From a virus, in the IMG/VR virus record IMGVR_UViG_3300028326_000183, positions 1,771 to 65,770 of that record: DNA of 64,000 nt. One strand, 5' to 3'. Made by a program: the position numbers and the translations under genes. Below are positions 34,532-64,000 of the stretch, one piece after another. The stretch's first letter is position 1. Every line of letters begins with the position of its first letter. Below the pieces are notes generated by a model, which worked only from the letters and a program-made list of their open reading frames with translations, was not told the origin of the DNA and did no database searches.

Positions 34532-37500
34532 TTATTTGCACATTATTCTCCATGCTGGTTTATTATTTGTTGCAACCGCTCCACGCCTCTCATATGAATA
34601 CTTGTTTGAGAAGGCTTCAATTACAGATTCAAATTTATCCTTATTATCATTTGTACATATTACCCATAAAATACCACTATTAGCGCGGTTATCAATTACC
34701 TCGAAATCTTTTACTTTTAGCATGTGTATTAACTCATTATCTTTATCTGTACTATTATCTTGTTCTTCATTATTTGTCGATTTCGAGTCGCCATCAACAA
34801 TATCAAACAATGATATTTGTCCTTTAATGCCTTCTTGAATTCGGGCTTGTGATTTTGAATTAGCTATTTTTCTCGAAACGTCTGTTTTAGTTTTTTTTTC
34901 TCTTCCCTTCGTTTGAGCCTTTTCTAAATGAGCTGCATGTGATATCAATATGTTCTTTTCAGTATAATAGTCAGTATCATCACTTCGAATAGTATCTACT
35001 ATTTCCATAGCTCTTATTTTGACTCGTTCAAATAGTTCTGATGATTGCATATGAGAACTATTACTACCTGTTTCTGGTTCTATTCCATATTCTTTCAATT
35101 TAGCGAATACATTATTCATTGCGGCTTCCGGATTTCGGTAATACTTGCTGCCACGAATTCTAATAAATTTCCATCCTATTCTTTCAAGTATTGTTTGCCT
35201 TTCCATATCTGAAAGAATCTGTTCTTCTGTACTATGAAATTGTTCGCCATCGCACTCTACTGCTATTTTGTTATTTTTATATTTGACAACAATATCTATT
35301 CTATATCCACCCACAGGCCATTGCTGTTCGATATTATATCCTTCCGCAACGAGGGCATTACCTACGGATTCTTCGAACGGTGATTCGGATTTTTTGGCCA
35401 CTTCTTCTTTTTTATTATTAAATGCTTGTGGATTCTCAGCATACTCTAATAAATCTCTTCTCATATCACCTGTTTTAAGATCTTTTGTATAATCTAAGGA
35501 GTGGATGATCCATAATTGATCTTTAGCTCGGCTAACAGCAACGTTGTATCTCTGTTTCGTAGAATTGTCCACACCTTCTCCACTTTTTCTTAGCGGGCCA
35601 TCACCCTCATTACTATCAACCAGCGAAATAAATATCACATCTCGTTCGTCACCTTGAAAAGAAGATGCGTCACCACATAATATACGATGTTGTTCAATAA
35701 TATTTGGATCCATTGTTTCAATTATTTTTTCTTGAATATATTTTGCTTGCTGATTTCCTAACAATGAAATGGCTCCGAAAGTTTTATCTTTGTATTCATC
35801 TTGCTCAATACAAGCCATCATAAATGCAACTATATAAAATACTTCTTCTCTGTTATACTTGGAATGTTCAAACCTATTACCATTAACACGATAAGGAATT
35901 ACTGCCGGCAATAAATTAGATGAACTAGCATCTCTTAAAGGTTTGATTTTGTAATCATATGACAGTTTGTTGCTATAGCCAATTATTTCTGGCACACACC
36001 TAAAATGTTCTATTAACATCAGTGGTTGATATGTAGTTCTTGCTATATCATACAATGAAGTCTTGGCATCGTATAAATGCCAATTGGGAATACTGTCTTT
36101 GATATGCATTTGCATTAAATTATTAACACTCTCTACATCTACGCCAACCGCTAATGGACTGACTTGTTTGTCATCGCCAACAATAATAACTTTTTTAGAC
36201 ATATATAATATGGCAAGCGCTGTGATATCTGATTGGCTCGCTTCATCTATGATAATAACGTCAAAGCAATTGCTGCTAGGATTATATGTTTCCAATGCTT
36301 TATTCAAAGGCATAATCCAAGCAGGAACAGCTTCTTGACATAACGCCATAAGTTCTCTTGCACGTCTTCTTAACATTGGTGCATTTTTACCGGTACCTTT
36401 TCCTATCTTTTTGGTTGTTTGTTTCCACCCTTGCAAAGCTTGTTGCATCTGAAGATTCGCTTCGATTTTTAAGAGTAAATGATACCAAGCGCTTAATGTA
36501 GCGACTTCTTCTGTCTTAGCTCTCAGTTTTACGCTTAATTCAACTGACTTCTCCTGCAACTTTTCGAATGGTTCCCTTGTCAATTGATTAATAATACCGT
36601 CAAATTGCTTCCACTTCCAAGCATCCTCTATATTCTCTGGACATGTATTGCTGCCATAAACACCTTCACGATTAGATATTGCAACAGACCAATCTGGTGC
36701 ATTCTCATATATTCTATCTAAAATATCCTTTCGTTTTTCTAATATAGATCGCTTACCTAAGACTATTGATAGCTTTTTCCAAGTAGTATTATAACCGTTA
36801 CAGTCTCCTTTATTTAACGCCTCGGCGAGTTCATGACATAATGGTGAACTCATGAACTCTTTTCGTTTGAGGATATTTACTGTTTCTTCTTTTTTTATAC
36901 GCAAACTGCGGTATTTTATAAATGTATGTACAATAGTCAAATACAATGGAACTTTATTTTCAATGGCATCAAGTGATTTCTCGATACGCGTTGTAACAGA
37001 TTCAGATTTATTATTCTCTAATAGCTTTTTTGCATTGAACCCAGCCGCATTTATTTTGTCACAAATAGCATTAAAACTATTGTTATACCAATCCAAATAT
37101 TTACTTATTTCATTCGCATAGTTTGAAGTGATTTCATCAGCATCGGAATCAAATGATTCATACATTGGAAGGCCATTGTTTCCCATAAGATCATTCCACT
37201 GATTTGCTGTATCCTTTTTCTTTATCAACAAATTTAAATATTTTATTACTATTGCGCAATCATACTCAGACGAAGGCATCTTATCATTAATTAAAATCGC
37301 ATCTAGCGAAGGCTGTAATAGCTTGTTAGTAAAACGATTAATTTTTGTTATTTTCCCTTTTCTTTTATATAAATCTTGTATAATTTTATACTGTGAAATC
37401 AAATCCTCATATGACATTTCGTTATTAACTTGGATGTTTATCTTTTTCCCTGTTAAATCAACAAGAATTGATTCCAGGAATTCTGATGTATCTGTAATAG

Positions 37501-39508
37501 ATTCCACCAACTTTTCCCATCGTCTTCGATATTCTCCGCCTCTATTACCTTCCGCCGCTACTTTAATCATCCAATTATCAATATTTGGCATTTGTTTTAT
37601 GCATTCATCCAGGTCATCAACAGCATCCTGAGACTCGAATGCCCAGATCACATCATTATTAATTCCAACGATAGTATTATCATCATAATGACACTCCATT
37701 TCTACATGAAGATGGTTTTGTGCTTCTGTAATAATATTATTATATTTATCTGCAGAGGAATATATATTGTACATATCTTCCGGAGTCATAATTTCGTTCA
37801 ATGTTGGAAGGTTATGATTCAATTCTCTTTCTTCTTCAGCAGAAATTTGGTCATTACTACGATACAAAAACCGCAATTCATCCAACGATACCGGTAGCGG
37901 TTTATGCAAGTCCACCTGCCCTGGAATATATGATAAGACATCATCATTTTCATGTACAAATTTTGCCATATCTAATGGTGAAAATGATTTTCCATCTATT
38001 ATGACAGGTTGAGATTCACTATTTTTGATAGCAAATATCTTTTCCCGTACATCAGATAATATATCAATAATTTGATTGCGCTCATCTGATGCTGCTTCCA
38101 ACTTTCGTTGTACTTCTGTAGCTTGATGTCTTGAAATATATTCTGTAATCCCATCAATGGATCTTTCCATATCGCGTTTGGTATCATCCAACACCGAAAC
38201 ACATAGATCCTGTATTTGTGAAGGAACTTGCTCTTTTAAAACAGTAAGCGCTTTGTTTTTTTCACTTGTTACTAAAACATTTTTTCCTTCAGCAAGAAAA
38301 TTACCAACCAAATTAGCAATCGTATGAGTTTTACCTGTTCCTGGTGGTCCTTGAACCAGCACAGCGTTATAATCTCTTATTCTCTGCGCTATTTCAAGTT
38401 GTTCTCTATTTGCTTCTTTTGCCAGTAATATTTCTCGGTTCTCTCCACTTACTGCAGCAAGTTTCTCAGCATTAGATAAATCCGGATGTTCAACCAGTTC
38501 CATAATTCTTTCACCTGAGACTAAATCAGAAAGATATCCTGGAACTTTGTCAGTATCATTAATTGTTTCAATAATTCTATCCACAGCTAATCCTGTGCCA
38601 TCAATTTTTCTTCTGATAAATACAACCGGTTCCAATCGCATAATTAACTGATCGTCTTCAGTAGGCTCATTATCGTCTTCGACAATGATACTTTCCGAAC
38701 ATAATTGATGTGTTAATCGTCTTAGATAATCTGCTGCCGAATTACGATCTAAAGGATGATAATAATTTTCATGTAATTCTTGCTGCAAATCTCTAATAAT
38801 ATCATGATTAATAAAACTAATCTTTTGAAGTAGCGGCATATAAAGTTCAGGCTCTTTATCTGTATCACAAATGCAAATTGTATTGTTATCCGGGTCAAAA
38901 GAGAATCTTGCCCTTTTCAATAATACCGGATGGTGTAATGAGTGATCTGATGCTACTGTTATTATTCCGTTACCTACCATCAACTCCATAGTTTCGGTTT
39001 CATTATTTAATTCAATATAGGCTTTGTATAAGGATGAAAAAAAGTCTCTAGTTTCCAAAGTAATTTTTTGCTCAATAGCCCATTCCTTACAAATATTTAT
39101 CCATTTATTATACGCATCATTAATTTTTTCATCTTCGTTCGGATAATAATCGCCACGTAAATCAGCATCTTCATCCAAAAAGAAAGAGATGTTGTTAGTA
39201 ATATTTTTTATTGAAATATGCTCTTTCCAATCGGGAACCAAGAATTGTACAATTTGATCTGATGGAGGCGGACATTGAACATATTCTGGCTTTGTCACAG
39301 ATAATAATACAACATCCTCATCAGATTCATCGTTATCTTCTTCACTATCCATGAAAAAAACTTGTACATAATCAGGATCATCAGGAAAATCCGAGAATTG
39401 GTATTTCCAAGTTTGTTTATTAATATCAGTATTAACACTATATTTCAATTCAGATAAAGCTTTTATATATTGAAATAATGAAACTATTTTTTTAGAGTTA
39501 GAATTCAC
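34532..39508 (-). CDS. SF1 (Upf1/DNA2-like) helicase fused to a Vsr/MTES_1575-type restriction-like endonuclease
   Basis: QGPPGTGKT, IIDEASQ, VGDDKQ, HFRC, FQGDERD, RYNVAVSRAK; then SPFEE...YRIDIVV...AVECDGEQFH...RQTILERIGWKFIRI; long insertion between motifs I and II. Confidence 0.9.
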   Translation of the reverse strand: MNSNSKKIVSLFQYIKALSELKYSVNTDINKQTWKYQFSDFPDDPDYVQVFFMDSEEDNDESDEDVVLLSVTKPEYVQCPPPSDQIVQFLVPDWKEHISIKNITNNISFFLDEDADLRGDYYPNEDEKINDAYNKWINICKEWAIEQKITLETRDFFSSLYKAYIELNNETETMELMVGNGIITVASDHSLHHPVLLKRARFSFDPDNNTICICDTDKEPELYMPLLQKISFINHDIIRDLQQELHENYYHPLDRNSAADYLRRLTHQLCSESIIVEDDNEPTEDDQLIMRLEPVVFIRRKIDGTGLAVDRIIETINDTDKVPGYLSDLVSGERIMELVEHPDLSNAEKLAAVSGENREILLAKEANREQLEIAQRIRDYNAVLVQGPPGTGKTHTIANLVGNFLAEGKNVLVTSEKNKALTVLKEQVPSQIQDLCVSVLDDTKRDMERSIDGITEYISRHQATEVQRKLEAASDERNQIIDILSDVREKIFAIKNSESQPVIIDGKSFSPLDMAKFVHENDDVLSYIPGQVDLHKPLPVSLDELRFLYRSNDQISAEEERELNHNLPTLNEIMTPEDMYNIYSSADKYNNIITEAQNHLHVEMECHYDDNTIVGINNDVIWAFESQDAVDDLDECIKQMPNIDNWMIKVAAEGNRGGEYRRRWEKLVESITDTSEFLESILVDLTGKKINIQVNNEMSYEDLISQYKIIQDLYKRKGKITKINRFTNKLLQPSLDAILINDKMPSSEYDCAIVIKYLNLLIKKKDTANQWNDLMGNNGLPMYESFDSDADEITSNYANEISKYLDWYNNSFNAICDKINAAGFNAKKLLENNKSESVTTRIEKSLDAIENKVPLYLTIVHTFIKYRSLRIKKEETVNILKRKEFMSSPLCHELAEALNKGDCNGYNTTWKKLSIVLGKRSILEKRKDILDRIYENAPDWSVAISNREGVYGSNTCPENIEDAWKWKQFDGIINQLTREPFEKLQEKSVELSVKLRAKTEEVATLSAWYHLLLKIEANLQMQQALQGWKQTTKKIGKGTGKNAPMLRRRARELMALCQEAVPAWIMPLNKALETYNPSSNCFDVIIIDEASQSDITALAILYMSKKVIIVGDDKQVSPLAVGVDVESVNNLMQMHIKDSIPNWHLYDAKTSLYDIARTTYQPLMLIEHFRCVPEIIGYSNKLSYDYKIKPLRDASSSNLLPAVIPYRVNGNRFEHSKYNREEVFYIVAFMMACIEQDEYKDKTFGAISLLGNQQAKYIQEKIIETMDPNIIEQHRILCGDASSFQGDERDVIFISLVDSNEGDGPLRKSGEGVDNSTKQRYNVAVSRAKDQLWIIHSLDYTKDLKTGDMRRDLLEYAENPQAFNNKKEEVAKKSESPFEESVGNALVAEGYNIEQQWPVGGYRIDIVVKYKNNKIAVECDGEQFHSTEEQILSDMERQTILERIGWKFIRIRGSKYYRNPEAAMNNVFAKLKEYGIEPETGSNSSHMQSSELFERVKIRAMEIVDTIRSDDTDYYTEKNILISHAAHLEKAQTKGREKKTKTDVSRKIANSKSQARIQEGIKGQISLFDIVDGDSKSTNNEEQDNSTDKDNELIHMLKVKDFEVIDNRANSGILWVICTNDNKDKFESVIEAFSNKYSYERRGAVATNNKPAWRIMCK

Positions 39509-43105: not shown

Positions 43106-46100
43106 TTATTCATTCATATCACTATTATCCGTCCAAAGTTCACACTGTGTCATTACAGTCTGAACAGCATCTTCCATTCCTTCTGGAGGATACTTATGTT
43201 TTCTTAGAAGACGTTTAATCATCATTCTCATTCTGGCCCGGGCCGATTCTCTCTTCTGCCAATCGATAGTCCGATTGTTTCTTAATGCCTCAGTCAGTTC
43301 TTTTGTTATAGCAATCAGTTCATCATTTTCATAGAAGTCCTTTATTGCCTCAGGCCTTGTTAATGCATCATAAAATGCCAGCTCATCTGGAGTAAGACCA
43401 AGTTCGTTTCCTTCTTTATTCGCGTCTGATATCTGTTTTGCAAGATTAAGAAGTTCCTCTATAACCTGCTCATTTGTGAGCATTCCATTGAGGTATTTAT
43501 TCATTATACTCTGCATAATTTCGCTGAATTTTGCTGACTTTACTACGTTTGTTTTGCGATAGATTTGCACCTGCTCAGCAATGAGTTTTCGTAAAACTTC
43601 GACAGCAAGATTCTTTTCCTTCATCTTTGATATTTCATCAAGGAATTTTGGATCGAAAAGTGAGAACTCCGTTTTCACATCAGAAAATAAGTTTATAACA
43701 CCCTCGCTCTTAATACTTGCTTTGAGAAGTTCATTAATTCTATCATTCATTTCCGTGAGTGATATCTTCTTACCTTCTCCTTGATTCATTAAGCGCATTA
43801 CAAGGACTCTAACCGATTCAAAGAATGCTGCCTCTATTCTTAAATCATGCTCTACAAGTGATGAACATAATGACAAGGCTTGCTTCATCAGTAATGCTTC
43901 TTTTATAAAATTTTCACGTTCCTGTTTTTTATCGACTGCTACAATAAAGTTAACAGCTCCGCTAATTGCTTTTGAGCGTTCTAAATTAGTTCCTGTAGAG
44001 AACTTCGAATAATCGTATCCATGAAACAGATCCTGACATATTGATAATTTCTCAAGGAACTTTGGATATGCTACTTTCCCAATATCCGGATTACCATAAT
44101 TGTTTTTATCACGAGCTGTATAGTCATTCATTGCCTGTTTCAGCGCAGAAGCTATACCTACGTAGTCAACAATCAAACCGCCTTCTTTATCCTTAAAAAC
44201 ACGATTTACGCGAGCTATAGCTTGCATTAGATTATGTCCACGCATTGGTTTATAAACATACATAGTTGCAAGCGACGGAACATCAAAACCAGTCAGCCAC
44301 ATATCAACGACTATAGCTATTTTCATATTGCTATTATCATCTTTAAACTCCGTTGCTAATTCATCTCTATGCTGCCGGTTTCCTATAACTGCTCGCCATT
44401 CTTCCGGATCCTTATTATTTTCTGTCATTACAACCTTAGCTTTTTCTTTCCAGCCAGGCCTAAGCTCCAGTATTTTACTATATATCTTCATCGCAATGGA
44501 ACGAGAATACGCAACTATCATAGCTTTTCCCGTAAGGAGTTCACTACGGTTATTTTCATAATGATCAATGATATCATTCACGAGTGAGTCAATAGTTGCA
44601 TCATTGCCAAGAACGACTTCCATATTTCCAAGTTCTTTTTTACTCTTTTCAATTACAGCCGGATCTGCATTATTGGCCATCAGATCATATTCTTGGTCAA
44701 TAAGATGCAGCGTTTTTTCATCGAACTTAAGCTTAATTACGCGGCTTTCATAGTATACCGGTCTAGTAGCGCCATCTTCCACAGCTTGAGTCATATCGTA
44801 AATATCAATATAATCTCCGAAGACCTCGCGAGTATCTCTGTCCTTCATCGAAATAGGAGTTCCAGTGAAACCAATATATGTGGCATTCGGGAGACTATCT
44901 CTTATGATACGTGCTGTGCCTACTTTAATTTCCCCAGTTTTCAGATCTATTTTTTCTTTCAGACCATACTGGCTGCGATGAGCTTCATCCGCCATAACAA
45001 TAATATTCTTTCGATCAGACAGTGGTTCGGAAGATTCTTCGAACTTTTGCATAGTAGTAAAAATAATACCATTTGCCTTACGTCCATCGAGCCAGTCTTT
45101 TAGTCCAACTTCATTTTTGCTAGGATTATCTCCTAGCTTTCTGCATGTTGCATGTACAGGATCCTGCCTAAGGAAATGTCTGCACTTTGCAAATTGTCCA
45201 TATAACTGATCATCAAGATCATTCCTATCTGTAATAACAACAATAGTAGGACTCTCTAATGCATCTTGCAGCAAATGCGCATAGAAAACCATAGATAGAG
45301 ATTTACCGGAGCCCTGTGTATGCCAAAAAACACCACCCTTACCATCGGTAACAGTTGCATTTTTTGTTGATTCAATTGCCTTCTTTACAGCGAAGTATTG
45401 ATGATATCCAGCTAGGATTTTGAATTGCTTTAGTCCCTCATCTGAAAAGCAAATAAAGTTCTCAATGATATCTAAAAGTCGCTCTTTGGTAAACATGCCT
45501 TCAAAGAATGTATCAAACTGTGCATATTGCGTATTTTCATAGTCTCCATCTTTTGTTTTCCATTCCATAAAGCGATCTTCACCAGATGTGATAGTACCTG
45601 CTTTACTCGTAAGATGATCACTAATTACACATATGCAGTTATATATAAACATTGATGGGATTTCCTGCATATAATTTCTGATCTGCCTAAAGCCTTCTGA
45701 CGCTTCAGTTTCCTCCCTTGACGGGGATTTCAGTTCCATGAGTACAACCGGTAATCCATTCAGAAAGATTATGATATCCGGACGCTTATTGCTATTTTCT
45801 ATAAAAGTCCACTGATTAGCAATAATGAATGAGTTATTATCAATATTTTTATAATCAGCAAGTATTACGCGTCCAGAACGTTCTTCACCATCAACAAAGT
45901 ATCTTACTTCAATCCCGTTCTGCAGATAATCCATAAAAATTGAATTTTTTTGCACAAGTTCAGCATTCTCGAAATTCTTCAATTTATTGATTGCATCAGA
46001 AACTGCGTCCTCTGGCATTCCCGGATTCAAACGATACAATGATGCCTCAAGTTCTGTATCATACAAAGGACTATTGAAATCACGATCAAGATCTGGCGCA

Positions 46101-46195
46101 TATATATGATTATATCCCATATCTTGGAATAGCTCTATTACAGTGTTTTCATAATCAGCTTCTGTATATATTCCCTGCAACCTCATCACTCCCAA
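43106..46195 (-). CDS. hsdR: Type I restriction endonuclease subunit R
   Basis: RPDIIIFLNGLPVVLMELKS, WHTQGSGKS, ADEAHRSQY, FTGTP, VVDMWLTGFD, QAIARVNR. Confidence 0.97.
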   Translation of the reverse strand: MGVMRLQGIYTEADYENTVIELFQDMGYNHIYAPDLDRDFNSPLYDTELEASLYRLNPGMPEDAVSDAINKLKNFENAELVQKNSIFMDYLQNGIEVRYFVDGEERSGRVILADYKNIDNNSFIIANQWTFIENSNKRPDIIIFLNGLPVVLMELKSPSREETEASEGFRQIRNYMQEIPSMFIYNCICVISDHLTSKAGTITSGEDRFMEWKTKDGDYENTQYAQFDTFFEGMFTKERLLDIIENFICFSDEGLKQFKILAGYHQYFAVKKAIESTKNATVTDGKGGVFWHTQGSGKSLSMVFYAHLLQDALESPTIVVITDRNDLDDQLYGQFAKCRHFLRQDPVHATCRKLGDNPSKNEVGLKDWLDGRKANGIIFTTMQKFEESSEPLSDRKNIIVMADEAHRSQYGLKEKIDLKTGEIKVGTARIIRDSLPNATYIGFTGTPISMKDRDTREVFGDYIDIYDMTQAVEDGATRPVYYESRVIKLKFDEKTLHLIDQEYDLMANNADPAVIEKSKKELGNMEVVLGNDATIDSLVNDIIDHYENNRSELLTGKAMIVAYSRSIAMKIYSKILELRPGWKEKAKVVMTENNKDPEEWRAVIGNRQHRDELATEFKDDNSNMKIAIVVDMWLTGFDVPSLATMYVYKPMRGHNLMQAIARVNRVFKDKEGGLIVDYVGIASALKQAMNDYTARDKNNYGNPDIGKVAYPKFLEKLSICQDLFHGYDYSKFSTGTNLERSKAISGAVNFIVAVDKKQERENFIKEALLMKQALSLCSSLVEHDLRIEAAFFESVRVLVMRLMNQGEGKKISLTEMNDRINELLKASIKSEGVINLFSDVKTEFSLFDPKFLDEISKMKEKNLAVEVLRKLIAEQVQIYRKTNVVKSAKFSEIMQSIMNKYLNGMLTNEQVIEELLNLAKQISDANKEGNELGLTPDELAFYDALTRPEAIKDFYENDELIAITKELTEALRNNRTIDWQKRESARARMRMMIKRLLRKHKYPPEGMEDAVQTVMTQCELWTDNSDMNE

Positions 46196-46196
46196 A

Positions 46197-46835
46197 CTAT
46201 CTTTTTTGTTTTAAACACATATCTGGATGAATACATTCATAATCATAACTAATACAGCTTTTACATTTGCAGATTCCATTGTTTCGATATTTGCAATCTT
46301 TTACGTTCAGTTTATTAGATTTTAGATTATTCTTTTTATTAGGCTTAGGTTTAGATTTAACAGATTTTATATAATCTTCGGTTTCAGCTACAAAAAACGA
46401 ATTCATTGAACGACTCAAAGTATCAGTTAATCTGTTTCTACTGCTACTTACAATGAGTCGTTCTAATTCAGTTGGAGCTAATTTTCTAATGCTTTTCAGT
46501 TTTATGTATATGGATGGAATGTAACCACTTCCATATATATATTCATCATAATACATAGGATATGCTTCTATCGGCCGTTTCTCTGTAATATCTATAAAAT
46601 GACATACAAATGCAGCTCCTTTTGAATATAATATCACTATTCCCTTTCCATCTTTAAATACATCACTAATGACTTTTTTCGATGGCGCACGTCCTAACTT
46701 TGCAAACCAGCAATATCCATATTGCCTAATAACATCTTCATGAAGCTGGATACAATTTGAAACAATATTGGTTCCGTATCGTAATATTAGAATTTTTTGT
46801 TCATCAGATAAACGCAAATATTTCTCCTTATACAT
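46197..46835 (-). CDS. Hypothetical protein inside the type I RM locus, Cys-rich C-terminus
   Basis: 212 aa; HEDVIRQYGYCWFAKLG; C-terminal C-x7-C-x-C-x2-C-x6-C-x5-C; extended -10 TGATATAAT at 46852-46860. Confidence 0.8.
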   Translation of the reverse strand: MYKEKYLRLSDEQKILILRYGTNIVSNCIQLHEDVIRQYGYCWFAKLGRAPSKKVISDVFKDGKGIVILYSKGAAFVCHFIDITEKRPIEAYPMYYDEYIYGSGYIPSIYIKLKSIRKLAPTELERLIVSSSRNRLTDTLSRSMNSFFVAETEDYIKSVKSKPKPNKKNNLKSNKLNVKDCKYRNNGICKCKSCISYDYECIHPDMCLKQKR

Positions 46836-46874: not shown

Positions 46875-47510
46875 ATAAACAAGAATTTAGAGCAGCAGGC
46901 ACAAGCACTTTTTAAGTCTTGGTTTATTGATTTTGAACCTTTCAATGGCTCGATACCTGCAAATTGGAGAACATCTACGCTGTCTCAAGTTTCGGAGATG
47001 GGCGCTGGCGGCGATAAGCCGCAAATCGTCTCTGATAACATGACGGCTGAATGTCCATATCCAATTTATTCTAATGGCATATCCAATGAAGGCTTGTACG
47101 GATATACTGATAAAGCGAAAATCTTTGATGAAAGTGTAACGGTCTCTGCCAGAGGAACTATAGGCTTTGTTTGTTTACGACATATTCCATATGTTCCTAT
47201 AGTTCGTTTAGTTACGTTAATCCCCGATAAAAATAAGATTTCAGCGAAGTACCTATATTTTTGGCTGCAATTGCTGCACATTGCAGGAACCGGAACAACA
47301 CAGCAACAACTTACAGTACCATACTTTCAATCAACCGAGATTCTTGTACCGGATAGTGATACCTTAGCAAAGTTTACGGATTTTGCAGATTCTGCTTTCA
47401 GTAACATTTGGTCAAATCAAGCTGAGAACGATAAGCTTGCAGCTTTAAGAGATACTTTGCTTCCCCGGTTAATGTCTGGTAATCTCGATGTATCCGACCT
47501 TGACCTTTAG
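46875..47510 (+). CDS. hsdS: Silent inverted hsdS C-terminal (TRD2) cassette
   Basis: Frame open from the repeat: INKNLEQQAQALFKSWFIDFEPF...GTGTTQQQLT...LRDTLLPRLMSGNLDVSDLDL*; no native start; opposite strand to the locus. Confidence 0.9.
   Translation: MNKNLEQQAQALFKSWFIDFEPFNGSIPANWRTSTLSQVSEMGAGGDKPQIVSDNMTAECPYPIYSNGISNEGLYGYTDKAKIFDESVTVSARGTIGFVCLRHIPYVPIVRLVTLIPDKNKISAKYLYFWLQLLHIAGTGTTQQQLTVPYFQSTEILVPDSDTLAKFTDFADSAFSNIWSNQAENDKLAALRDTLLPRLMSGNLDVSDLDL
46876..46889 (+). repeat. hsdS recombination core, site 1
   Basis: TAAACAAGAATTTA; extends to 23 bp of identity (46875-46897) with the inverted site 4. Confidence 0.9.
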
Positions 47511-48043
47511 GTCGTTAAATTCTTGTTTATACGTTCATTCTGTTCTATCTTATCGTCATATTGAGATAGCATTTCTGCAATCTTATTTTGTGTTCCTATA
47601 TCAGGTATAGAAACTAAAATATTATCAAAAGTATCACGCGTTATAGTATCAAACACAGATCCATGTGTAATCTTCTTCAGTTTTGAAATGCTATTCTTAA
47701 CCAAATAATACAGGAAAGTCTGATTAAGGCCATCCTTGCTTCGAATACCATAGCACGACTGATTAAAAGCCATCGGAAAAGGTATCATAGCCATTTCTCC
47801 AACGGTTCCTCTAGCAGAAATAATAATGTCATCTTCCTGTAGCATTTTTGTGGAACTATGTTCTAATCCCGCCTCGCTAATATGTTTCCCCGTTTCGTAG
47901 ACATAACGATTATCGTCGTTAAAGTCTTTAACTGAAAGCCACGGAATGTCTCCATCCCAATACTCTTGGATGGAAGTCTTCGGAGTACCACCGCCAATTA
48001 ATTCTATAGTATCGCTTAAACGCTGTTCTTTCCATTTGCTCAT
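47507..48043 (-). CDS. hsdS: Truncated hsdS N-terminal half (TRD1)
   Basis: 178 aa with its own RBS AGGAAGG; IGGGTPKTS, ISARGTVG, FNQSCYG, GSVFDTIT; ends INKNLTT*. Confidence 0.9.
   Translation of the reverse strand: MSKWKEQRLSDTIELIGGGTPKTSIQEYWDGDIPWLSVKDFNDDNRYVYETGKHISEAGLEHSSTKMLQEDDIIISARGTVGEMAMIPFPMAFNQSCYGIRSKDGLNQTFLYYLVKNSISKLKKITHGSVFDTITRDTFDNILVSIPDIGTQNKIAEMLSQYDDKIEQNERINKNLTT
47516..47529 (-). repeat. hsdS recombination core, site 2
   Basis: Minus-strand TAAACAAGAATTTA. Confidence 0.9.
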
Positions 48044-48056
48044 ACTCTGTACCTTC

Positions 48057-49046
48057 CTAACCTATATATTTCCTGTGCGCCCGCTTAACATTACTTTGTT
48101 TAACCATCGCGTACTGGAGCGTTGTATCTATCCTTTTATGTCCTAGTAGCTGCTGTAGCTGCTCTATCGGCATTCCTTTATCTATTGCCATCGTAGCGAG
48201 CGTCCGGCGAAACTTGTGTGGATGCACCTTGGGAATATCCAGCCGTTTCCCAAGCTCCCTGAGTCTACTCTCGACACCACCTATTTTCAATCGATTATAT
48301 GGTGCCCTTAATGTCACAAACAGTGCCGGATTATCGTCCGACCGCTTCTGCAAGTAATTCTGCATGTGTATTTTTGTCCGTGCATCGAAATAGACCACCC
48401 GCTCCTTTCTGCCTTTACCGAATACCACGCATTCCCGCTCTTCAAAGTTAATATCGTCCCTGTTCAGAAGAACCAGCTCCCCTACTCGCATTCCGGTTGA
48501 CGCTAATATATCAATCAGCGCCAAATCTCTTGGCTCCTTGCAGCTATCACGCATCTTTTCCAATGCCTCATCCGTATAGGTTTCCTTTATTATCGATGCT
48601 GTCTTTACCTTATGAATCCTGCGCACAGGACTTTTCAGGATATAGTCCTCATCCTCTAGCCACGAAAAAAAGCTTGATAGGATCCGGCGAATGTTATCAA
48701 CCGTAACCTTACTGGACTGTTTTTCCCACTGATATCCAGTCAGGTAAGTTCGAAGCTCATCTGTTGTAATCTCTCGAACTTTCTTTTCAACCTTCGCAAG
48801 CATTTTTTCAATTGTTGTCTTGTAGTATGTCAGCGTCTTTTCCGAGCAGCCTTCGATTCTCTTCGCCGAAAGGAATGACTCTAACAACTGTTCATTCGTT
48901 GCACCAATATTAGTTTCTTGCTCCGCCTCCGTTATCTCCTTTTGGAATAGCGCATGTTCCAATACTTCCTGCAGCCTTTCCAACTGTGCATTGTTGAGGC
49001 TACCGAGCATGCCTTGCACAACCTCGTTTATTACTTTCTGTTTCAT
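48057..49046 (-). CDS. Tyrosine recombinase (Xer-like) of the hsdS shufflon
   Basis: STGMRVGEL, GKGRKER, HPHKFRRT, LLGHKRIDTTLQYA. Confidence 0.95.
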   Translation of the reverse strand: MKQKVINEVVQGMLGSLNNAQLERLQEVLEHALFQKEITEAEQETNIGATNEQLLESFLSAKRIEGCSEKTLTYYKTTIEKMLAKVEKKVREITTDELRTYLTGYQWEKQSSKVTVDNIRRILSSFFSWLEDEDYILKSPVRRIHKVKTASIIKETYTDEALEKMRDSCKEPRDLALIDILASTGMRVGELVLLNRDDINFEERECVVFGKGRKERVVYFDARTKIHMQNYLQKRSDDNPALFVTLRAPYNRLKIGGVESRLRELGKRLDIPKVHPHKFRRTLATMAIDKGMPIEQLQQLLGHKRIDTTLQYAMVKQSNVKRAHRKYIG

Positions 49047-49140
49047 GGTCATTTCTCCTTTAATTAATTGTAGAGAATGACTACGGAGTGGCAGTCTCTC
49101 GTTTTAACTCTTGCCACTCACAAGAGTTATGGTCGTATAT

Positions 49141-49154
49141 TAAACAAGAATTTA
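49141..49154 (+). repeat. hsdS recombination core, site 3
   Basis: TAAACAAGAATTTA immediately beyond the hsdS stop; a GAGTGGCA/TGCCACTC inverted repeat lies next to it (49086-49119). Confidence 0.9.
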
Positions 49155-49159
49155 GTGGA

Positions 49160-50248
49160 TTAAATGTCAATGTCTGAGACATCAAGTTCACCGGACATTA
49201 GCTGTGGCAACAATGAATCCCTAAGCTCTGCTAGTTTAGTATTTTCCAGCAAATTAGCATCATACATAGCCATAAGCTGACCTGCTGTGTTCTCATATTG
49301 TTGAAGAGTCTCTTTGTCAGGAAGAAGAACAGATACTTTATTCATATCTCCCTGAGTGATAAGGGGCTGGGTGGAACCACGGTTCATTGCGTGATAATCA
49401 ATTCTTTGTAAGATTTGATATGTGTACTCATAAAAGTCGCTCGTAATTACAAGAGTATTATCAGATGTCCAGCAAGGAGAATTAAAACGCTGAATTACAC
49501 CGTGTGTTCCAACGCGTCCGGTAACAAGGATCTTGTTGATATGATTTGGTTCAGACGTGAAGCCCATCACTGAGGCAGCACCGACTATTGGGGTTTTTGA
49601 TATATCAGTTTTTTCTGATGATTTCATCGGTGGGCGTTTGCCGCTTGCGAGCGAAGCAATATCAGAAAGAATTCCTTTTTTCCATGAGGATGGGCAGATG
49701 CCATCATACTGGATAATATCCTCAAATTGTGCCTGATAAAGTGATGATACTTGCTGCTCTAAATTCTTGTTTATCTCATTATTCAAATATATTTTGTCAT
49801 CAAGCGCCCCTATTATTGATATTATTTTCCTTTGGTCATTTATCTGTGGAATTGCCAACGGTATAGCGTTCATATTTGTTTGACTAAGCTTTGGCTGTGC
49901 TGATCCAGTAATATACCCAGACAAATCCATGCTATTAATTAAATAGTATAGATAATGTAAATCACATTTCGAATTATTCCTCAAAATATGAGCATGATTA
50001 TTGACCCAAAATTTTCCTTTCACTAATTGAGCAATATTTTGCTTATGCGATTTAAGATTTTCACCATCTTCTGCAATTAACAGATACTCACCATCAAAAA
50101 TATAATCATCAACGTAATCTATTACACCTTGAGCGCCATAATATCTATATTTACCTCCTCTATTCTTTCTTTGTATAGAAGATAGTGGTACACGCATACG
50201 ATCATAATTTTCCGTTACTTCATCAAATCTAAAAATTTCAGATTTCAT
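49160..50248 (-). CDS. hsdS: Type I RM specificity subunit (currently full length)
   Basis: Two TRDs joined by the INKNLEQQ conserved region; GSAQPKL, GSTQPLI; ends LRDSLLPQLMSGELDV; start overlaps the hsdM stop. Confidence 0.95.
   Translation of the reverse strand: MKSEIFRFDEVTENYDRMRVPLSSIQRKNRGGKYRYYGAQGVIDYVDDYIFDGEYLLIAEDGENLKSHKQNIAQLVKGKFWVNNHAHILRNNSKCDLHYLYYLINSMDLSGYITGSAQPKLSQTNMNAIPLAIPQINDQRKIISIIGALDDKIYLNNEINKNLEQQVSSLYQAQFEDIIQYDGICPSSWKKGILSDIASLASGKRPPMKSSEKTDISKTPIVGAASVMGFTSEPNHINKILVTGRVGTHGVIQRFNSPCWTSDNTLVITSDFYEYTYQILQRIDYHAMNRGSTQPLITQGDMNKVSVLLPDKETLQQYENTAGQLMAMYDANLLENTKLAELRDSLLPQLMSGELDVSDIDI
49760..49773 (-). repeat. hsdS recombination core, site 4
   Basis: Minus-strand TAAACAAGAATTTA inside the expressed hsdS. 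Confidence 0.9.
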
Positions 50249-51743
50249 ACCCAATCGCCCCCAATTTCTTTTTGATTTCATCTTCAAGCTTATGGGATTT
50301 TTCAAACATCTCCGAAAGCTCCGAAGTAAGACGTGTCATCTTTTCATCAAACGGTTCACCATCTTCTTCCTGTTCTTCAATACCCACATAACGCCCCGGT
50401 GTCAAAATATAGTCTTGTTTCGCTATATCCTCAGTGGTTGATACAGCACAGAATCCCTTCTCATCTTCCAGTGTACCATTCTGGAAAGCCTCAAAAGTAT
50501 CTGCAAGTCTTTGAATATCATCTTCAGAAAAGTCACGGTGTTTTCTGTCTACCATATGCCCCATTTTACGGGCATCAATAAATACTGTCTTACCTTTCTG
50601 CTTTTTACCCTTCGTAATAAACCAAAGTGTTACCGGAATCGTCACGCTATAGAAAAGCTGAGTAGGCATTGCTACAATACCCTCAATCAAATCATCTTCT
50701 ATTATTTTCTGTCTAATATCTCCTTCTCCACCGGATTGAGTTGAAAGAGCTCCATTTGCAAGTACTAGTCCTATCTTCCCTCCCGGCGCAAGGTGATGAA
50801 TCATATGCTGAATCCATGCAAAGTTGGCATTGCCTGCTGGAGGAAGTCCATATTTCCAACGGACATCATCTTTCAATTTTTCCTGGCCCCATGGATTATA
50901 ATTAAATGGAGGATTTGCAAGTACAAAATCAGCTTTTAATGTTGGATGAAGATCATTTGCAAATGTATCTGCATGATATGGCCCGAGATCTGCATCAAGA
51001 CCGCGAATTGTTAAATTCATAATAGCCATTTTCCATGTATCAGGATTTGCTTCCTGACCGTATATAGAAATGGCTTCTCGATTCGTTGAATGCGCCTGAA
51101 TAAATTTTGCGCTCTGAACAAACATTCCGCCAGATCCGCAGCAAGGGTCGTATACACGACAATTTGAATATGGTTTCAATATAGCAACAAGAGTATTTAA
51201 AATACTCGATGGTGTGAAGAATTCTCCACCACCTTTTCCTTCTTTTGCAGCGAACTGTGATATGCAGTATTCATATGTCCTTCCAAGAAGATCTTTGGTA
51301 CCATCCGTTTCATGCATGTCCATATTAGTGAAAAGATCAACGACATCACCTAATACACGTTTATCAAGATCCGGGCTCGCATAATTTTTTGGTAAGACAT
51401 TCTTCAATTTTTTATTATCAGCTTCTATAGCACGCATAGCATTATCTATTACAGTGCCGATTTCAGGTTTATGCGCTGCTGCCGCGATTACGCTCCATCT
51501 TGCATCTTCCGGAACAAAGAATACATTATCTTCAAGATAGGCGTCAACATCATTTTCAAATCCATCACCCTCATCAATAAGTTGTTTGTATTTTTTCTCG
51601 AATGAAGTGGATATGTATCTTAAAAAAATCAGTCCAATAATAACATTCCTATACTCTGCCGCAGGGATATGTCCCCATAACACGCAGGCCGCATCCCATA
51701 GTTCTTTCTCAAATCCGATATTCGCATTATTCTTTTCTGCCAT
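50238..51743 (-). CDS. hsdM: Type I RM methyltransferase subunit
   Basis: GEFFTPSS, YDPCCGSGGMF, ANPPFN, LTPGRYVG; extended -10 TGGTATAAT at 51772-51780. Confidence 0.97.
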   Translation of the reverse strand: MAEKNNANIGFEKELWDAACVLWGHIPAAEYRNVIIGLIFLRYISTSFEKKYKQLIDEGDGFENDVDAYLEDNVFFVPEDARWSVIAAAAHKPEIGTVIDNAMRAIEADNKKLKNVLPKNYASPDLDKRVLGDVVDLFTNMDMHETDGTKDLLGRTYEYCISQFAAKEGKGGGEFFTPSSILNTLVAILKPYSNCRVYDPCCGSGGMFVQSAKFIQAHSTNREAISIYGQEANPDTWKMAIMNLTIRGLDADLGPYHADTFANDLHPTLKADFVLANPPFNYNPWGQEKLKDDVRWKYGLPPAGNANFAWIQHMIHHLAPGGKIGLVLANGALSTQSGGEGDIRQKIIEDDLIEGIVAMPTQLFYSVTIPVTLWFITKGKKQKGKTVFIDARKMGHMVDRKHRDFSEDDIQRLADTFEAFQNGTLEDEKGFCAVSTTEDIAKQDYILTPGRYVGIEEQEEDGEPFDEKMTRLTSELSEMFEKSHKLEDEIKKKLGAIGYEI

Positions 51744-51980
51744 AATTAATTCCTTTCTATTCACGATATAAATTATACCATAAATATATTCAAAATCTTT
51801 TGCTCATTATTATACATGTTATTTAAATTGCGATATGTGACATTATTTACGTCTACGAGAAGAACTCCTTACAGAATGATAGAATCTGCAGGCCCAACTG
51901 ACGATGAAAATCATCGACAATGCTTGTTTTGATGAACCGGTATTAAAGAAACGACATGTCAGTTCATATCGAAAAAGTAT

Positions 51981-60959: not shown

Positions 60960-62420
60960 TCAAAACGGCAAAAGTCGGTCGGTCAACTCAATTATGTTTA
61001 TATTTGGGAAAGCGTAGTTGTTATAAATAGAGGCAATTATGATTTGGTGGTCTTTAAAGTCCTTGGCAAGAATATCCATCATTTCATGGACGTTCTCCAT
61101 ACTCACTTCACGCCCACTCGGTGAGTCCAAGATTATGGGCAAACAAACACCAGTGTGCCTTTGAATCAGCTTGACATATGAAATTTTGAAAGCGAACACG
61201 ACCTTGTGGAAGATCGCCCCTGACAATGACTTTAAGTCGTTAGTAAAAATGTAATCGTTCCTTGCGCTTACATATTTTTCGTCCAAACCGAGTCGCACGG
61301 CATATGACGAAATCAGTTGATGTAGCTCTGCTATAAGTGGATTATCCTGCTTAACGCTTTTTATCAGCTTTTCTTCTAATGCCCGTCTTTCTTTTTCCAT
61401 TTTATCTATTATCTTTTGGGTTGCCACAGCGTCTACATTTATTCTTGAGATTTCTGAATCAAACTGCTGAAGGCTTGTAGTCACATCGACCAGGGTTGCC
61501 TCTTTGTCTTGCTGCGCTTTTAGAACTGATATCTTTCTGTCAATTGCGACAAGCTGTTCAAAATAAATTTTTTGTTTTGCCACAAGCAAATCAGCGGTAT
61601 CTCCATAACCGACTAGGGTGTCCTTGTTGACTGGCACCTCGTCACCATTCGGGGCTTTCACTCTTAGCCTAAAAGAGGTAATGAACTTTTCAAAGTTCGT
61701 ATTCTTGCGGATTACGCTTTTTATGCGACTAAGTTCTTCCTCAATTGGTTTCCGTTCGCAATACAAGATGTCCAGTCCACTTTCAATATCATCTGCCGGA
61801 GAGTCAATGAAGGCAGTTTCGCCAAGCTGGTTAATTTCAGCCTTATATGTTGCCACATCAAGCATATGCTTGTATTTCTGAATCTCACGCTTAATGACAG
61901 CGAGTCGTTGTGCTAACTCGTCATTGGTGCGATTTGACAGACCACGAAGCAAGGATTCAATTGAAAAATGTATATTGCCAATCGCTTTGCCTCGGTTAAG
62001 TAAAGTCCATCCTTTTTCTTGGTCAACGTAAAAAGCGCCAAGGAGATTGTCGACCACTTCAAGGTTAGAAATGCCATATATTGAGGAGTGTAACTCATTT
62101 TGCTCAACCGGAAGCGAATATCCTTTCTCTATTCCATTGTGTAGCACTTCGATGTAGTCCCTATTTCTGGTTAGTACAAAGTTTTCATCACTAGCGCCAA
62201 TAACCGTCAGAACTGTTTCATAATCAGAAAAACGTATACCACGGGTATTTGGAATCTGGTAGCCCAAGGCGTACATCATCATTCGTAGCAAAGTTGTCTT
62301 ACCGACACTGTTTTTTGTGCTAAAAATAACATTAGCATTTTCCCCGAACGAGAAAACCTTCTGGTTATCGCTCAAAAGAGTTAACTGATTAGCGTTTACC
62401 TGCAACGAAACTATTCTCAT
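60960..62420 (-). CDS. lmuB: Short SMC-like ABC ATPase, Lamassu LmuB-like
   Basis: Walker A STKNSVGKTT, Q-loop FYVDQEKGW, coiled coil, LSGA signature, Walker B IILDSP. Confidence 0.78.
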   Translation of the reverse strand: MRIVSLQVNANQLTLLSDNQKVFSFGENANVIFSTKNSVGKTTLLRMMMYALGYQIPNTRGIRFSDYETVLTVIGASDENFVLTRNRDYIEVLHNGIEKGYSLPVEQNELHSSIYGISNLEVVDNLLGAFYVDQEKGWTLLNRGKAIGNIHFSIESLLRGLSNRTNDELAQRLAVIKREIQKYKHMLDVATYKAEINQLGETAFIDSPADDIESGLDILYCERKPIEEELSRIKSVIRKNTNFEKFITSFRLRVKAPNGDEVPVNKDTLVGYGDTADLLVAKQKIYFEQLVAIDRKISVLKAQQDKEATLVDVTTSLQQFDSEISRINVDAVATQKIIDKMEKERRALEEKLIKSVKQDNPLIAELHQLISSYAVRLGLDEKYVSARNDYIFTNDLKSLSGAIFHKVVFAFKISYVKLIQRHTGVCLPIILDSPSGREVSMENVHEMMDILAKDFKDHQIIIASIYNNYAFPNINIIELTDRLLPF

Positions 62421-63409
62421 AATTTCACCTTGCCTTTTATATCCGCTATGATCTTTCGGCTTCTTAGAACATTAGCTACAGTCACACGGATAACTATCTC
62501 TTCGGTGGTCGAATCTGCACTTTTTAAGTCAAAGCTATTCTTATAATTTTTCCAATTTTCCTCAATGAAATTTTTGGTTCGTTCTTTCGATTTCATCTCC
62601 GGGTGGAACTCGTTATAATCACTGAGAATGCAGGAAACAAATTCAAATCGCTCGCTGTTGTTGTTGATAACGCTTCTGTATTTTTGCAGAATCTCAGCAA
62701 CATCGCTGTCGTCGTAATCTTCAAGTTCAGCATCGTCTTCGCTTACTTCACAGAGTATTGCTATAACAGGCCAGACCATTCGCTTTTTTGTGATTGATGT
62801 TGTTAATTGTGATGCATTGACCGCAAAGGAATGTTGCCACAGTGCCAGCAAGTCACTTGTCGAAATTTTATGAACGCCAAGTTGATTAAGGAATTCTGTT
62901 GTTAAAGTTATCAGAACTTTATACCGCTCGTCATCGTTCTCACCGTGGAATTGCATCACGCAAACCGTCAGTAATGCCTTGTCAAAATCGTATCCTTTCA
63001 AGGAGCAAATATCGTTAATTGCCTCCTGACAAGCGGTAGGCAGTTCCGAAAAAGGTACAATGTTAAGCGGGCTGCTGAACTTAAACATAGTCGTCATGTC
63101 ATTAAACGGGTTTGGGGAATTCGTAATAAAAACAAGTTGTTCAACGTCAGATATCTTTGCGGCATTGTTAAGTGTTCGTAGCCCAGCTTCCAGTTTTTCT
63201 TTAACGTGACTGTAGTCGTCAGGCTTCATAACTGCTTTTGCTTGTGACATCAATGTTTTTCCGTCAGCGAAAGTAATCTCGACATCTTCTGATTGCCCCT
63301 CAACTTTGACCTTGGAGGCTTTCTCAATGTTTTTAAGCATCAGCATAATTGCCGCATTACTTTGAAAATCCCATCCAAAGGCGGATGCCGATGCGTTTGA
63401 AGACTTCAT
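62417..63409 (-). CDS. lmuA: Lamassu LmuA-like effector with an N-terminal Cap4/Mrr-type nuclease
   Basis: ASASAFGWDFQ, EGQSEDV, QAK PD-(D/E)xK-type motifs; ATGA overlap with the ATPase gene. Confidence 0.72.
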   Translation of the reverse strand: MKSSNASASAFGWDFQSNAAIMLMLKNIEKASKVKVEGQSEDVEITFADGKTLMSQAKAVMKPDDYSHVKEKLEAGLRTLNNAAKISDVEQLVFITNSPNPFNDMTTMFKFSSPLNIVPFSELPTACQEAINDICSLKGYDFDKALLTVCVMQFHGENDDERYKVLITLTTEFLNQLGVHKISTSDLLALWQHSFAVNASQLTTSITKKRMVWPVIAILCEVSEDDAELEDYDDSDVAEILQKYRSVINNNSERFEFVSCILSDYNEFHPEMKSKERTKNFIEENWKNYKNSFDLKSADSTTEEIVIRVTVANVLRSRKIIADIKGKVKL

Positions 63410-63460: not shown

Positions 63461-64000
63461 TTACTCCACACCCAAAGCCTTAAACACTGCTTCCTGCGGT
63501 GTTGAGTAAAATATTAAACTGAATGCGCCGATAAGGTCTGACGGAACCGTTCCAAGTTCGGCGGCTGATGTTATTGGTATTAATACTTTCTTCGCTCCGG
63601 CATCGAGGCAGACTTGCAGGACGCTCGCCAGTTCTTCTACCTTGAGGATTGTGCCACTGATGCTGATTTCACCGAGGACTGCAAGGCTTGATAGAGTAGG
63701 TTTGCCAAGGGCGCAGGATGCAAGTGCTATCACTGTCGGCAGGGTCAGAAACTTCGTCATCCCGATGCCGTTAAGGTCTTGGTAGTTGATAATGTAATCC
63801 TTCGTGGTCGTGCTGAGTTGACCGCTTATCTGGTTGCCGCTTGCTTTCAGGTAGTTGAACGCGGTGTTTGTGGCTTCCTTTGCGTCACGGTCGGAGCCAA
63901 GCCCAGTGCGTTCGAACTTGCCGTTGCCGGGAAGCATCTGCGTTTCAAGGCGGTATACACCTATCATACCGCTCTTGCCCTGCGAGATTGTGTAGACATT
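63461..64000 (-). CDS. brxL: BREX Lon-like protease BrxL, C-terminal part (runs off the right edge)
   Basis: Frame open to the edge: NVYTISQGKSGMIGVYRLETQMLPGNGKFERTGLG...LAVLGEISISG...DAGAKKVLIP...AVFKALGVE*. Confidence 0.88.
   Translation of the reverse strand, partial: NVYTISQGKSGMIGVYRLETQMLPGNGKFERTGLGSDRDAKEATNTAFNYLKASGNQISGQLSTTTKDYIINYQDLNGIGMTKFLTLPTVIALASCALGKPTLSSLAVLGEISISGTILKVEELASVLQVCLDAGAKKVLIPITSAAELGTVPSDLIGAFSLIFYSTPQEAVFKALGVE

Follow-up and report, generated by a model that had tools for sequence, protein, structure and literature searches.

A probable four-site hsdS shufflon on a viral contig, and the prevalence of one complete specificity gene among its relatives

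The sequence analysed here belongs to a viral contig of the IMG/VR collection (IMGVR_UViG_3300028326_000183), from which a stretch of 64,000 nucleotides (nt), hereafter called the window, was taken within a record of 66.6 kb. The window contains a Type I restriction-modification (R-M) locus with two specificity genes (hsdS-A and hsdS-B), a tyrosine recombinase gene between them, and a 14-bp repeat, hereafter the core (TAAACAAGAATTTA), placed at the borders of the target recognition domains (TRDs). This anatomy suggests a shufflon, in which parts of the specificity genes are exchanged by recombination. Every gene of the locus is encoded on the minus strand, with the inverted TRD2b cassette on the plus strand. 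The features are given below from hsdM to hsdR.

50238..51764, minus strand: hsdM, the Type I methyltransferase subunit, whose end overlaps the start of hsdS-A (Pfam N6_Mtase 2.2e-106, HsdM_N; PADLOC MTase_I 3e-197)
49160-50248, minus strand: hsdS-A, complete, 362 amino acids (aa), with two Methylase_S domains (open reading frame (ORF), Pfam)
49774..50248, minus strand: TRD1a, the fixed N-terminal half of hsdS-A (Methylase_S, ORF)
49760..49773, minus strand: core site 4, which encodes INKNL in frame and falls midway along the central helix of hsdS-A
49155..49759, minus strand: TRD2a cassette, now joined to TRD1a, with its stop codon 5 nt before site 3
49141..49154, plus strand: core site 3, orphan and non-coding, 5 nt past the hsdS-A stop
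49053..49140, minus strand: structured leader of the recombinase gene, conserved
48057..49052, minus strand: tyrosine recombinase, 331 aa (Pfam Phage_integrase 6e-31, SAM_4; NCBIfam NF040815 with 245 bits, cut-off 220)
47507..48043, minus strand: hsdS-B, truncated, 178 aa, consisting of TRD1b and part of the central helix and ending INKNLTT-stop
47516..47529, minus strand: core site 2, at the end of TRD1b
46890..47510, plus strand: TRD2b cassette, parked inverted, with its stop codon 5 nt before site 2 (Methylase_S 3.8e-14)
46876..46889, plus strand: core site 1, where the TRD2b cassette begins
46197..46835, minus strand: orf212, an unknown protein of 212 aa, directly upstream of hsdR
43106..46195, minus strand: hsdR, the Type I restriction subunit (Pfam HSDR_N, SWI2_SNF2, T1RH-like_C; PADLOC REase_I 1.7e-293)

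A search of the window returns exact copies of the core at 46876(+), 47516(-), 49141(+) and 49760(-). Their expected number by chance is 0.04, and none of 100 shuffled sequences gave four; no fifth copy is present in the window when one mismatch is allowed, and no further copies lie elsewhere in the whole record. The orientation of the copies alternates along the locus (+ - + -), and both cassettes share the same build, namely a core, a TRD2, a stop codon, 5 nt and an inverted core. The four Methylase_S domains of the locus correspond to four TRDs, of which the two TRD1s are co-oriented and lie outside the cassettes, while hsdM and hsdR are intact. The truncated hsdS-B has its own ribosome-binding site and follows the recombinase stop by 13 nt. 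A preliminary description of this DNA, made from the letters and a list of reading frames, had placed four exact cores at these positions and strands around a tyrosine recombinase, with each TRD2 cassette inside an inverted pair, hsdS-A full and hsdS-B cut; word search, reading frames and Pfam domains bear out all of this.

The consequences of recombination between the cores were derived in silico. Inversion between sites 1 and 2 restores a 382-aa hsdS-B, inversion between sites 3 and 4 shortens hsdS-A to 165 aa (ending INKNLVD-stop), and inversion between sites 1 and 4 creates a 369-aa fusion of TRD1a and TRD2b; the products agree with those predicted for these three flips beforehand. Excision through one direct pair of cores followed by reinsertion through the other leads to a fourth kind of product, a 375-aa fusion of TRD1b and TRD2a, and the reading frame is kept in each of the four TRD1 x TRD2 fusions. 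In an AlphaFold model of hsdS-A (mean predicted local distance difference test, pLDDT, of 90.6), the central helix spans residues 136-176 and the C-terminal helix residues 312-352. The core is found at residues 159-163, within the central helix, and therefore a truncated product keeps 28 of the 41 central-helix residues and lacks the C-terminal helix.

Whether such recombination takes place can be judged from relatives of the locus. About 230 loci were mapped, comprising 69 viral loci from IMG/VR, 80 genomic loci (of at least 579 hits) and 79 loci from gut metagenomes, with TRDs located by a home-made profile and cores by pattern search. Recombinase relatives, annotated as xerA or xerD, are found in the 69 IMG/VR loci and in at least 579 matches among species-representative genomes, as well as on plasmids, where the copies are annotated xerA. 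Hosts of the genomic relatives are mainly Lachnospiraceae and other Firmicutes (including Megasphaera, Streptococcus and Listeria), and those of the plasmid relatives are Lactococcus, Ligilactobacillus, Enterococcus and Methanosphaera. The recombinase on an archaeal Methanosphaera plasmid (plasmid hits H20 and H21) is 59.6% identical to that of the window, and the recombinase family therefore crosses domains. Among the cultured phages of the phage collection, close relatives of the recombinase are absent.

Most of the complete relatives share one build, namely hsdM, TRD1, core, TRD2 (in either orientation), core, recombinase, TRD1, core, TRD2 (again in either orientation), core and hsdR. Their four cores, including site 3, occupy the same places as those of the window and always alternate in orientation. 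The core takes the general form TAAA-N6-TTTA, in 11 variants, the middle bases of which vary between loci and match within a locus; four identical cores are present in 86 of the 90 relatives with at least four cores. In 148 cassettes, 5 nt separate the stop codon from the core that follows. It was considered whether the cores are conserved merely for encoding INKNL. This explanation was rejected, because site 3 is non-coding and because synonymous variants (TGAT and CGAT, for instance, both give INDNL) differ between loci and yet match within a locus. The identity of the cores within a locus is therefore a constraint at the DNA level, as would follow from a need for matching overlap regions in strand exchange, and the four sites of each locus evolve in concert.

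Two further observations were made during the survey. More distant recombinase relatives, 56-65% identical (L052, L056, L058-L063, L065, L068, L070 and L075), have all their TRDs co-directed and direct copies of TAAATCAAAATTTG flanking the recombinase and one TRD, and most of them have two hsdM genes; their layout is like that of the pneumococcal tvr locus without its tvrAT pair. Several IMG/VR contigs (L013-L018, L025, L027, L033, L045, L048, L049, L051 and L053) end within a few bases of the recombinase stop, at the TRD1b border, probably where assembly breaks as the conserved recombinase meets the variable TRDs of co-existing strains.

The relatives do rearrange at their cores, as comparison of nearly identical loci makes plain. 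Specifically, (i) L161 and L163 (99.2-100% identical) differ by the inversion of one cassette, (ii) in L171 and L175 (97.4-99.7% identical) the two cassettes have exchanged places with their orientation kept, and (iii) L202 and L203 (99.9-100% identical) differ by a flip of the whole block together with a flip of its middle segment, which holds the recombinase and TRD1b. The breakpoints of all three differences lie inside cores. The recombinase segment is also inverted relative to hsdM and hsdR in several other loci, e.g. L028, L057, L072, L084, L128, L136 and L180. In addition, the two ends of eight contigs coincide exactly with cores, as does one end of six others, and three of these 14 are isolate assemblies. 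Five of the eight (L099, L118, L120, L132 and L143) consist only of the recombinase and TRD1b segment; L106 (a Bariatricus isolate) contains this segment together with a cassette, between a direct pair of cores, and L123 (Roseburia inulinivorans DSM 16841) and L211 hold all three segments from core to core. A 14-bp repeat alone is too short to break an assembly, and ends of this kind therefore point to reads with alternative junctions.

The states in which the relatives are found are strongly biased. In a table restricted to strict, dereplicated loci, half of the loci would be expected to carry exactly one complete hsdS if the cassettes flipped freely. Among the 63 dereplicated loci in which the recombinase is co-oriented with the other genes, one complete hsdS is present in 59, two in two (L161 and L185) and none in two (L113 and L190; binomial p = 1.4e-13); L138 also looks to have both genes cut. 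When the middle segment is inverted, the outer cassette in any orientation still gives exactly one complete hsdS. The orientations of the cassettes appear constrained, at 59 to 4, with a co-oriented middle segment and free, at 3 to 3, with an inverted one (Fisher p = 0.012, with small numbers). The choice between the upstream-complete and the downstream-complete state requires at least 16 changes on the recombinase tree (62 loci), compared with 20.2 +/- 2.0 for shuffled labels. The state is therefore labile on this tree, yet intermediate states are rare. The rarity of loci with both genes full or both cut may reflect either selection against them or unequal recombination of the hybrid sites made by a single flip.

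These counts bear directly on the view of the preliminary description that hsdS-A and hsdS-B are separate ON/OFF switches. According to this explanation the cassettes flip independently, and states with dual specificity, or with half-subunits that dimerise, arise regularly. In its favour, each cassette is enclosed by a separate inverted pair of cores, the difference between L161 and L163 is a clean flip of a single cassette, and loci with both genes full or both cut exist, as listed above. Truncated products also retain much of the central helix. A dimer prediction for two copies of the truncated hsdS-B scored 0.19 against a mark of 0.32, a result that counts neither for nor against binding. 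Against the explanation, only 4 of the 63 co-oriented loci are in such states, where free flips predict 50%. In assemblies and long reads of Streptococcus suis, two complete hsdS genes or truncated genes only were never seen, and the wild-type methylome lists bipartite motifs only; single-TRD hsdS genes of another S. suis system were judged probably non-functional (PMC10790761). Regular independent toggling is therefore considered unlikely. The four-site shufflon, the dedicated recombinase and the four in-frame specificities proposed in the preliminary description hold up, but the independent toggling of two genes does not fit the 59 of 63 loci with one complete hsdS, and two specificities at once, or none, are not common states (2 + 2 of 63). 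Conversely, an absolute mechanistic rule by which single-cassette flips never occur was also entertained, and was dropped in view of L161/L163, L185, L113 and L190.

The sequence in front of the recombinase gene may add a further layer of control. An alignment of 31 loci shows conservation of the ~88 nt that separate site 3 from the start of the recombinase gene. The first helix of this leader is a hairpin. In the second, the hairpin loop pairs with downstream sequence, with 100% of the alignment cells paired and four of the six pairs changing on both sides. A third, nearly invariant helix pairs with the AGGAGA ribosome-binding site. From the pattern of pairing, the fold is predicted to be pseudoknot-like. 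A covariance model built from the 31 loci matched 62 of 99 other loci, once each and directly upstream of each recombinase gene; it found no leader in the more distant relatives with all-direct repeats, and no Rfam family matches the leader. By analogy with the attenuator that limits tvrR expression in pneumococcus (PMC6265443), the leader would limit translation of the recombinase. A promoter within the leader was considered and discarded: a promoter-like match is present, but the alignment shows no conservation of its -10 box.

These observations are best explained, with a probability that we put at roughly 80%, by a recombinase-driven four-site shufflon with two fixed TRD1s and two mobile TRD2 cassettes, in which one complete hsdS is strongly favoured. 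The two fixed N-terminal domains, TRD1a (after hsdM) and TRD1b (after the recombinase), would share the mobile C-terminal domains TRD2a and TRD2b, and the cores would divide the locus into segments X (TRD2a), Y (recombinase and TRD1b) and Z (TRD2b). Strand exchange at the cores would be carried out by the tyrosine recombinase. X, Y, Z or the whole of XYZ, each lying between an inverted pair of cores, could be inverted, and the direct pairs (sites 4/2 and 3/1) would allow a circle of ~2.2 kb to be excised and reinserted at the other pair, which would move the cassettes without flipping them and give exactly the difference between L171 and L175. A circular intermediate is hinted at by this swap, by the L106 contig with its direct pair and by tandem modules. 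The latter, in which a recombinase-TRD1-cassette module is repeated within one locus, were noted in L088, L157, L213 and L062, and are what one might expect of an excised circle integrating into an intact locus. In all, 16 arrangements would be possible, and the complete specificities within reach would be 1a+2a (the present one), 1a+2b, 1b+2a and 1b+2b. One complete and one truncated hsdS would be strongly favoured, and two complete genes or none would be possible but rare. Pairing of the leader with the ribosome-binding site of the recombinase probably keeps switching slow. It is conceivable, if somewhat short of an even chance, that both the one-complete-hsdS rule (whether due to selection or to asymmetry of the sites) and a new ~88-nt cis-regulatory leader RNA that sets the switching rate are real and perhaps unpublished.

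Several points weigh against the shufflon as it is described here. The rule of one complete gene is statistical, and 4 of 63 loci break it. The contig was assembled straight through in a single state, and the same element in another state was not found in the collections searched, where differently fused versions of the window TRDs were sought. More specifically, the best match in the hsdS-A search for alternative fusions is only 70% identical, for TRD2b the viral contigs gave no relative and the metagenomes 74% identity at most (about 72% over the full length), and TRD1b has a single match with 72% identity. Finally, S. suis assemblies and reads show no inverted xerD and the authors call the mechanism unknown (PMC10790761); therefore, the recombination pathways may differ between members.

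The single assembled arrangement, with no second sampling of the element, would also fit a frozen relic, in which sites and recombinase were inherited from an active ancestor and the specificity is now fixed as TRD1a+TRD2a. However, the four cores are exact, the recombinase has its full length and exceeds the curated NCBIfam cut-off, and hsdM, hsdR, both TRD1s, both cassettes and the leader are all intact. If the locus were decaying, one or more of the cores, the recombinase, the genes and the leader would be expected to be broken, and a relic is therefore highly improbable; a copy that still switches, as a shufflon would, is presumably what the window holds.

The surroundings of the locus are those of a virus and of a defence region. 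The record carries genes for capsid, portal, terminase, polymerase, primase and tape-measure proteins, and its left end is cut inside tail genes. The R-M locus lies within a one-directional defence array (helicase-nuclease, McrBC, YolD/UmuC and a PDC-M46 pair) that reaches the right end of the record. The following neighbours were delimited.

34532-39508, minus strand: superfamily 1 (SF1) helicase of 1658 aa with a C-terminal MTES_1575/DUF559 nuclease (PADLOC PDC-S37, MkoC, Hhe)
60960-63409: PDC-M46A/B (Lamassu-like) pair
63461-63967: BrxL gene, C-terminal third, whose frame runs off the record

With BrxL cut at one end and the tail genes at the other, the record is therefore a fragment that ends inside a BREX-like system, despite a completeness estimate of 100%. 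The defence array may be phage cargo or may be host DNA next to it; if it is cargo, a prophage would supply its host with a changeable restriction barrier. As for orf212, it has no match in Pfam, PHROG, NCBIfam or PADLOC. A lead from the protein atlas points to PUA-like clusters (feature score 0.95, template modelling (TM) 0.65), and a PUA-like N-terminal domain is possible. The protein has a Cys-rich C-terminal tail, the stop of its gene abuts the hsdR start, and a homologue is present in one other locus only (L159). A role as a reader of modified bases, appended to the R-M operon, is possible.

Switchable Type I systems alter both the range of phages resisted and the genome-wide methylation pattern. 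The layout described here is very common in Firmicutes (at least 579 matches in species-representative genomes), and plasmids and viral contigs carry it as well. In nature it undergoes rearrangements of several kinds, with a bias in favour of arrangements that have one, and only one, complete specificity gene.

The preliminary description had compared the locus with the pneumococcal ivr and tvr systems. The common ground, switching of a Type I system by a recombinase, stands, but the closest published system, to whose kind the window locus belongs, is SsuCC20p of S. suis, which had not been named. SsuCC20p comprises hsdM, hsdR and four TRDs with xerD in the middle (Willemse & Schultsz 2016, PMC5198162; Roodsant et al. 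2023, PMC10790761). Its TRD2 and TRD4 are each flanked by identical 14-bp repeats, TAAATCATCATTTA / TAAATGATGATTTA (PMC10790761); it sits in an 18-kb prophage-like setting, switches in a xerD-dependent manner and has its active hsdS downstream of xerD (PMC5198162, PMC10790761). All of its assemblies and long reads show one complete hsdS and no more (PMC10790761). The window locus shares hsdM, hsdR, four TRDs, a tyrosine recombinase between two hsdS genes and extra hypothetical genes, C-terminal TRDs each in an identical 14-bp inverted-repeat pair of the form TAAA-N6-TTTA, one complete hsdS in the assembled state (here hsdS-A, 362 aa) and an association with prophage DNA. The exact SsuCC20p repeat was found in L051 and L053, whose recombinases are 63-64% identical to that of the window. 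The window locus differs in the middle of its core (CAAGAA instead of TGATGA), in its TRDs, in its host, which is most likely a gut Firmicute, and in its place within a long defence-gene array beside phage genes. Inverted recombinase segments and single-cassette flips, seen in the relatives mapped here, were not seen in S. suis. The window copy alone adds little, since SsuCC20p already shows how such a locus behaves, and the comparison of relatives adds more. For instance, excision and reintegration could explain the S. suis events of 'TRDs switching place', for which the authors had no mechanism.

At the tvr locus (SpnIV) of Streptococcus pneumoniae, TvrR drives excision and reintegration (Kwun et al. 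2018, PMC6265443). The order of hsdM, TRD sequences, recombinase, TRD sequences and hsdR is the same (PMC6265443), as are the short core repeats at the TRD borders and the location of the recombinase within the mobile part; at tvr, and, judging from the leader, presumably in the window too, expression of the recombinase is limited by an RNA structure. The cassette swap between L171 and L175 is the product expected from excision and reintegration. However, all tvr repeats are direct and nothing inverts, whereas the cores of the window alternate. The tvrAT toxin-antitoxin pair is absent from the window locus, which has no room for it because the 88-nt leader alone precedes the recombinase and 13 nt alone follow it. 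Furthermore, the tvr attenuator is a 19-bp hairpin with a U tract, whereas the window leader appears pseudoknot-like with a helix on the ribosome-binding site, and in tvr only the upstream hsdS is active.

The survey of 'epigenetic invertons' by Huang et al. 2020 (PMC7672463) includes a clade 2 (TvrR-like) in which several hsdS genes in mixed orientation surround a tyrosine recombinase, as they do here; this likeness is one of layout. Mixed-orientation inversions of clade 2 would, according to that survey, give truncated HsdS and ON/OFF switching (PMC7672463). It differs from the present analysis in offering no site map, state statistics or experiments for the layout of the window. Lastly, in the ivr locus (SpnD39III; PMC4190663), one of the clade-1 invertons, recombinase-driven rearrangement of hsdS likewise switches Type I specificity, but there one expressed hsdS is combined with silent partial copies in the opposite orientation, several sets of repeats are used and both TRDs are exchangeable, whereas the window locus has a single repeat type, its TRD1s are fixed and only its TRD2 cassettes would move.

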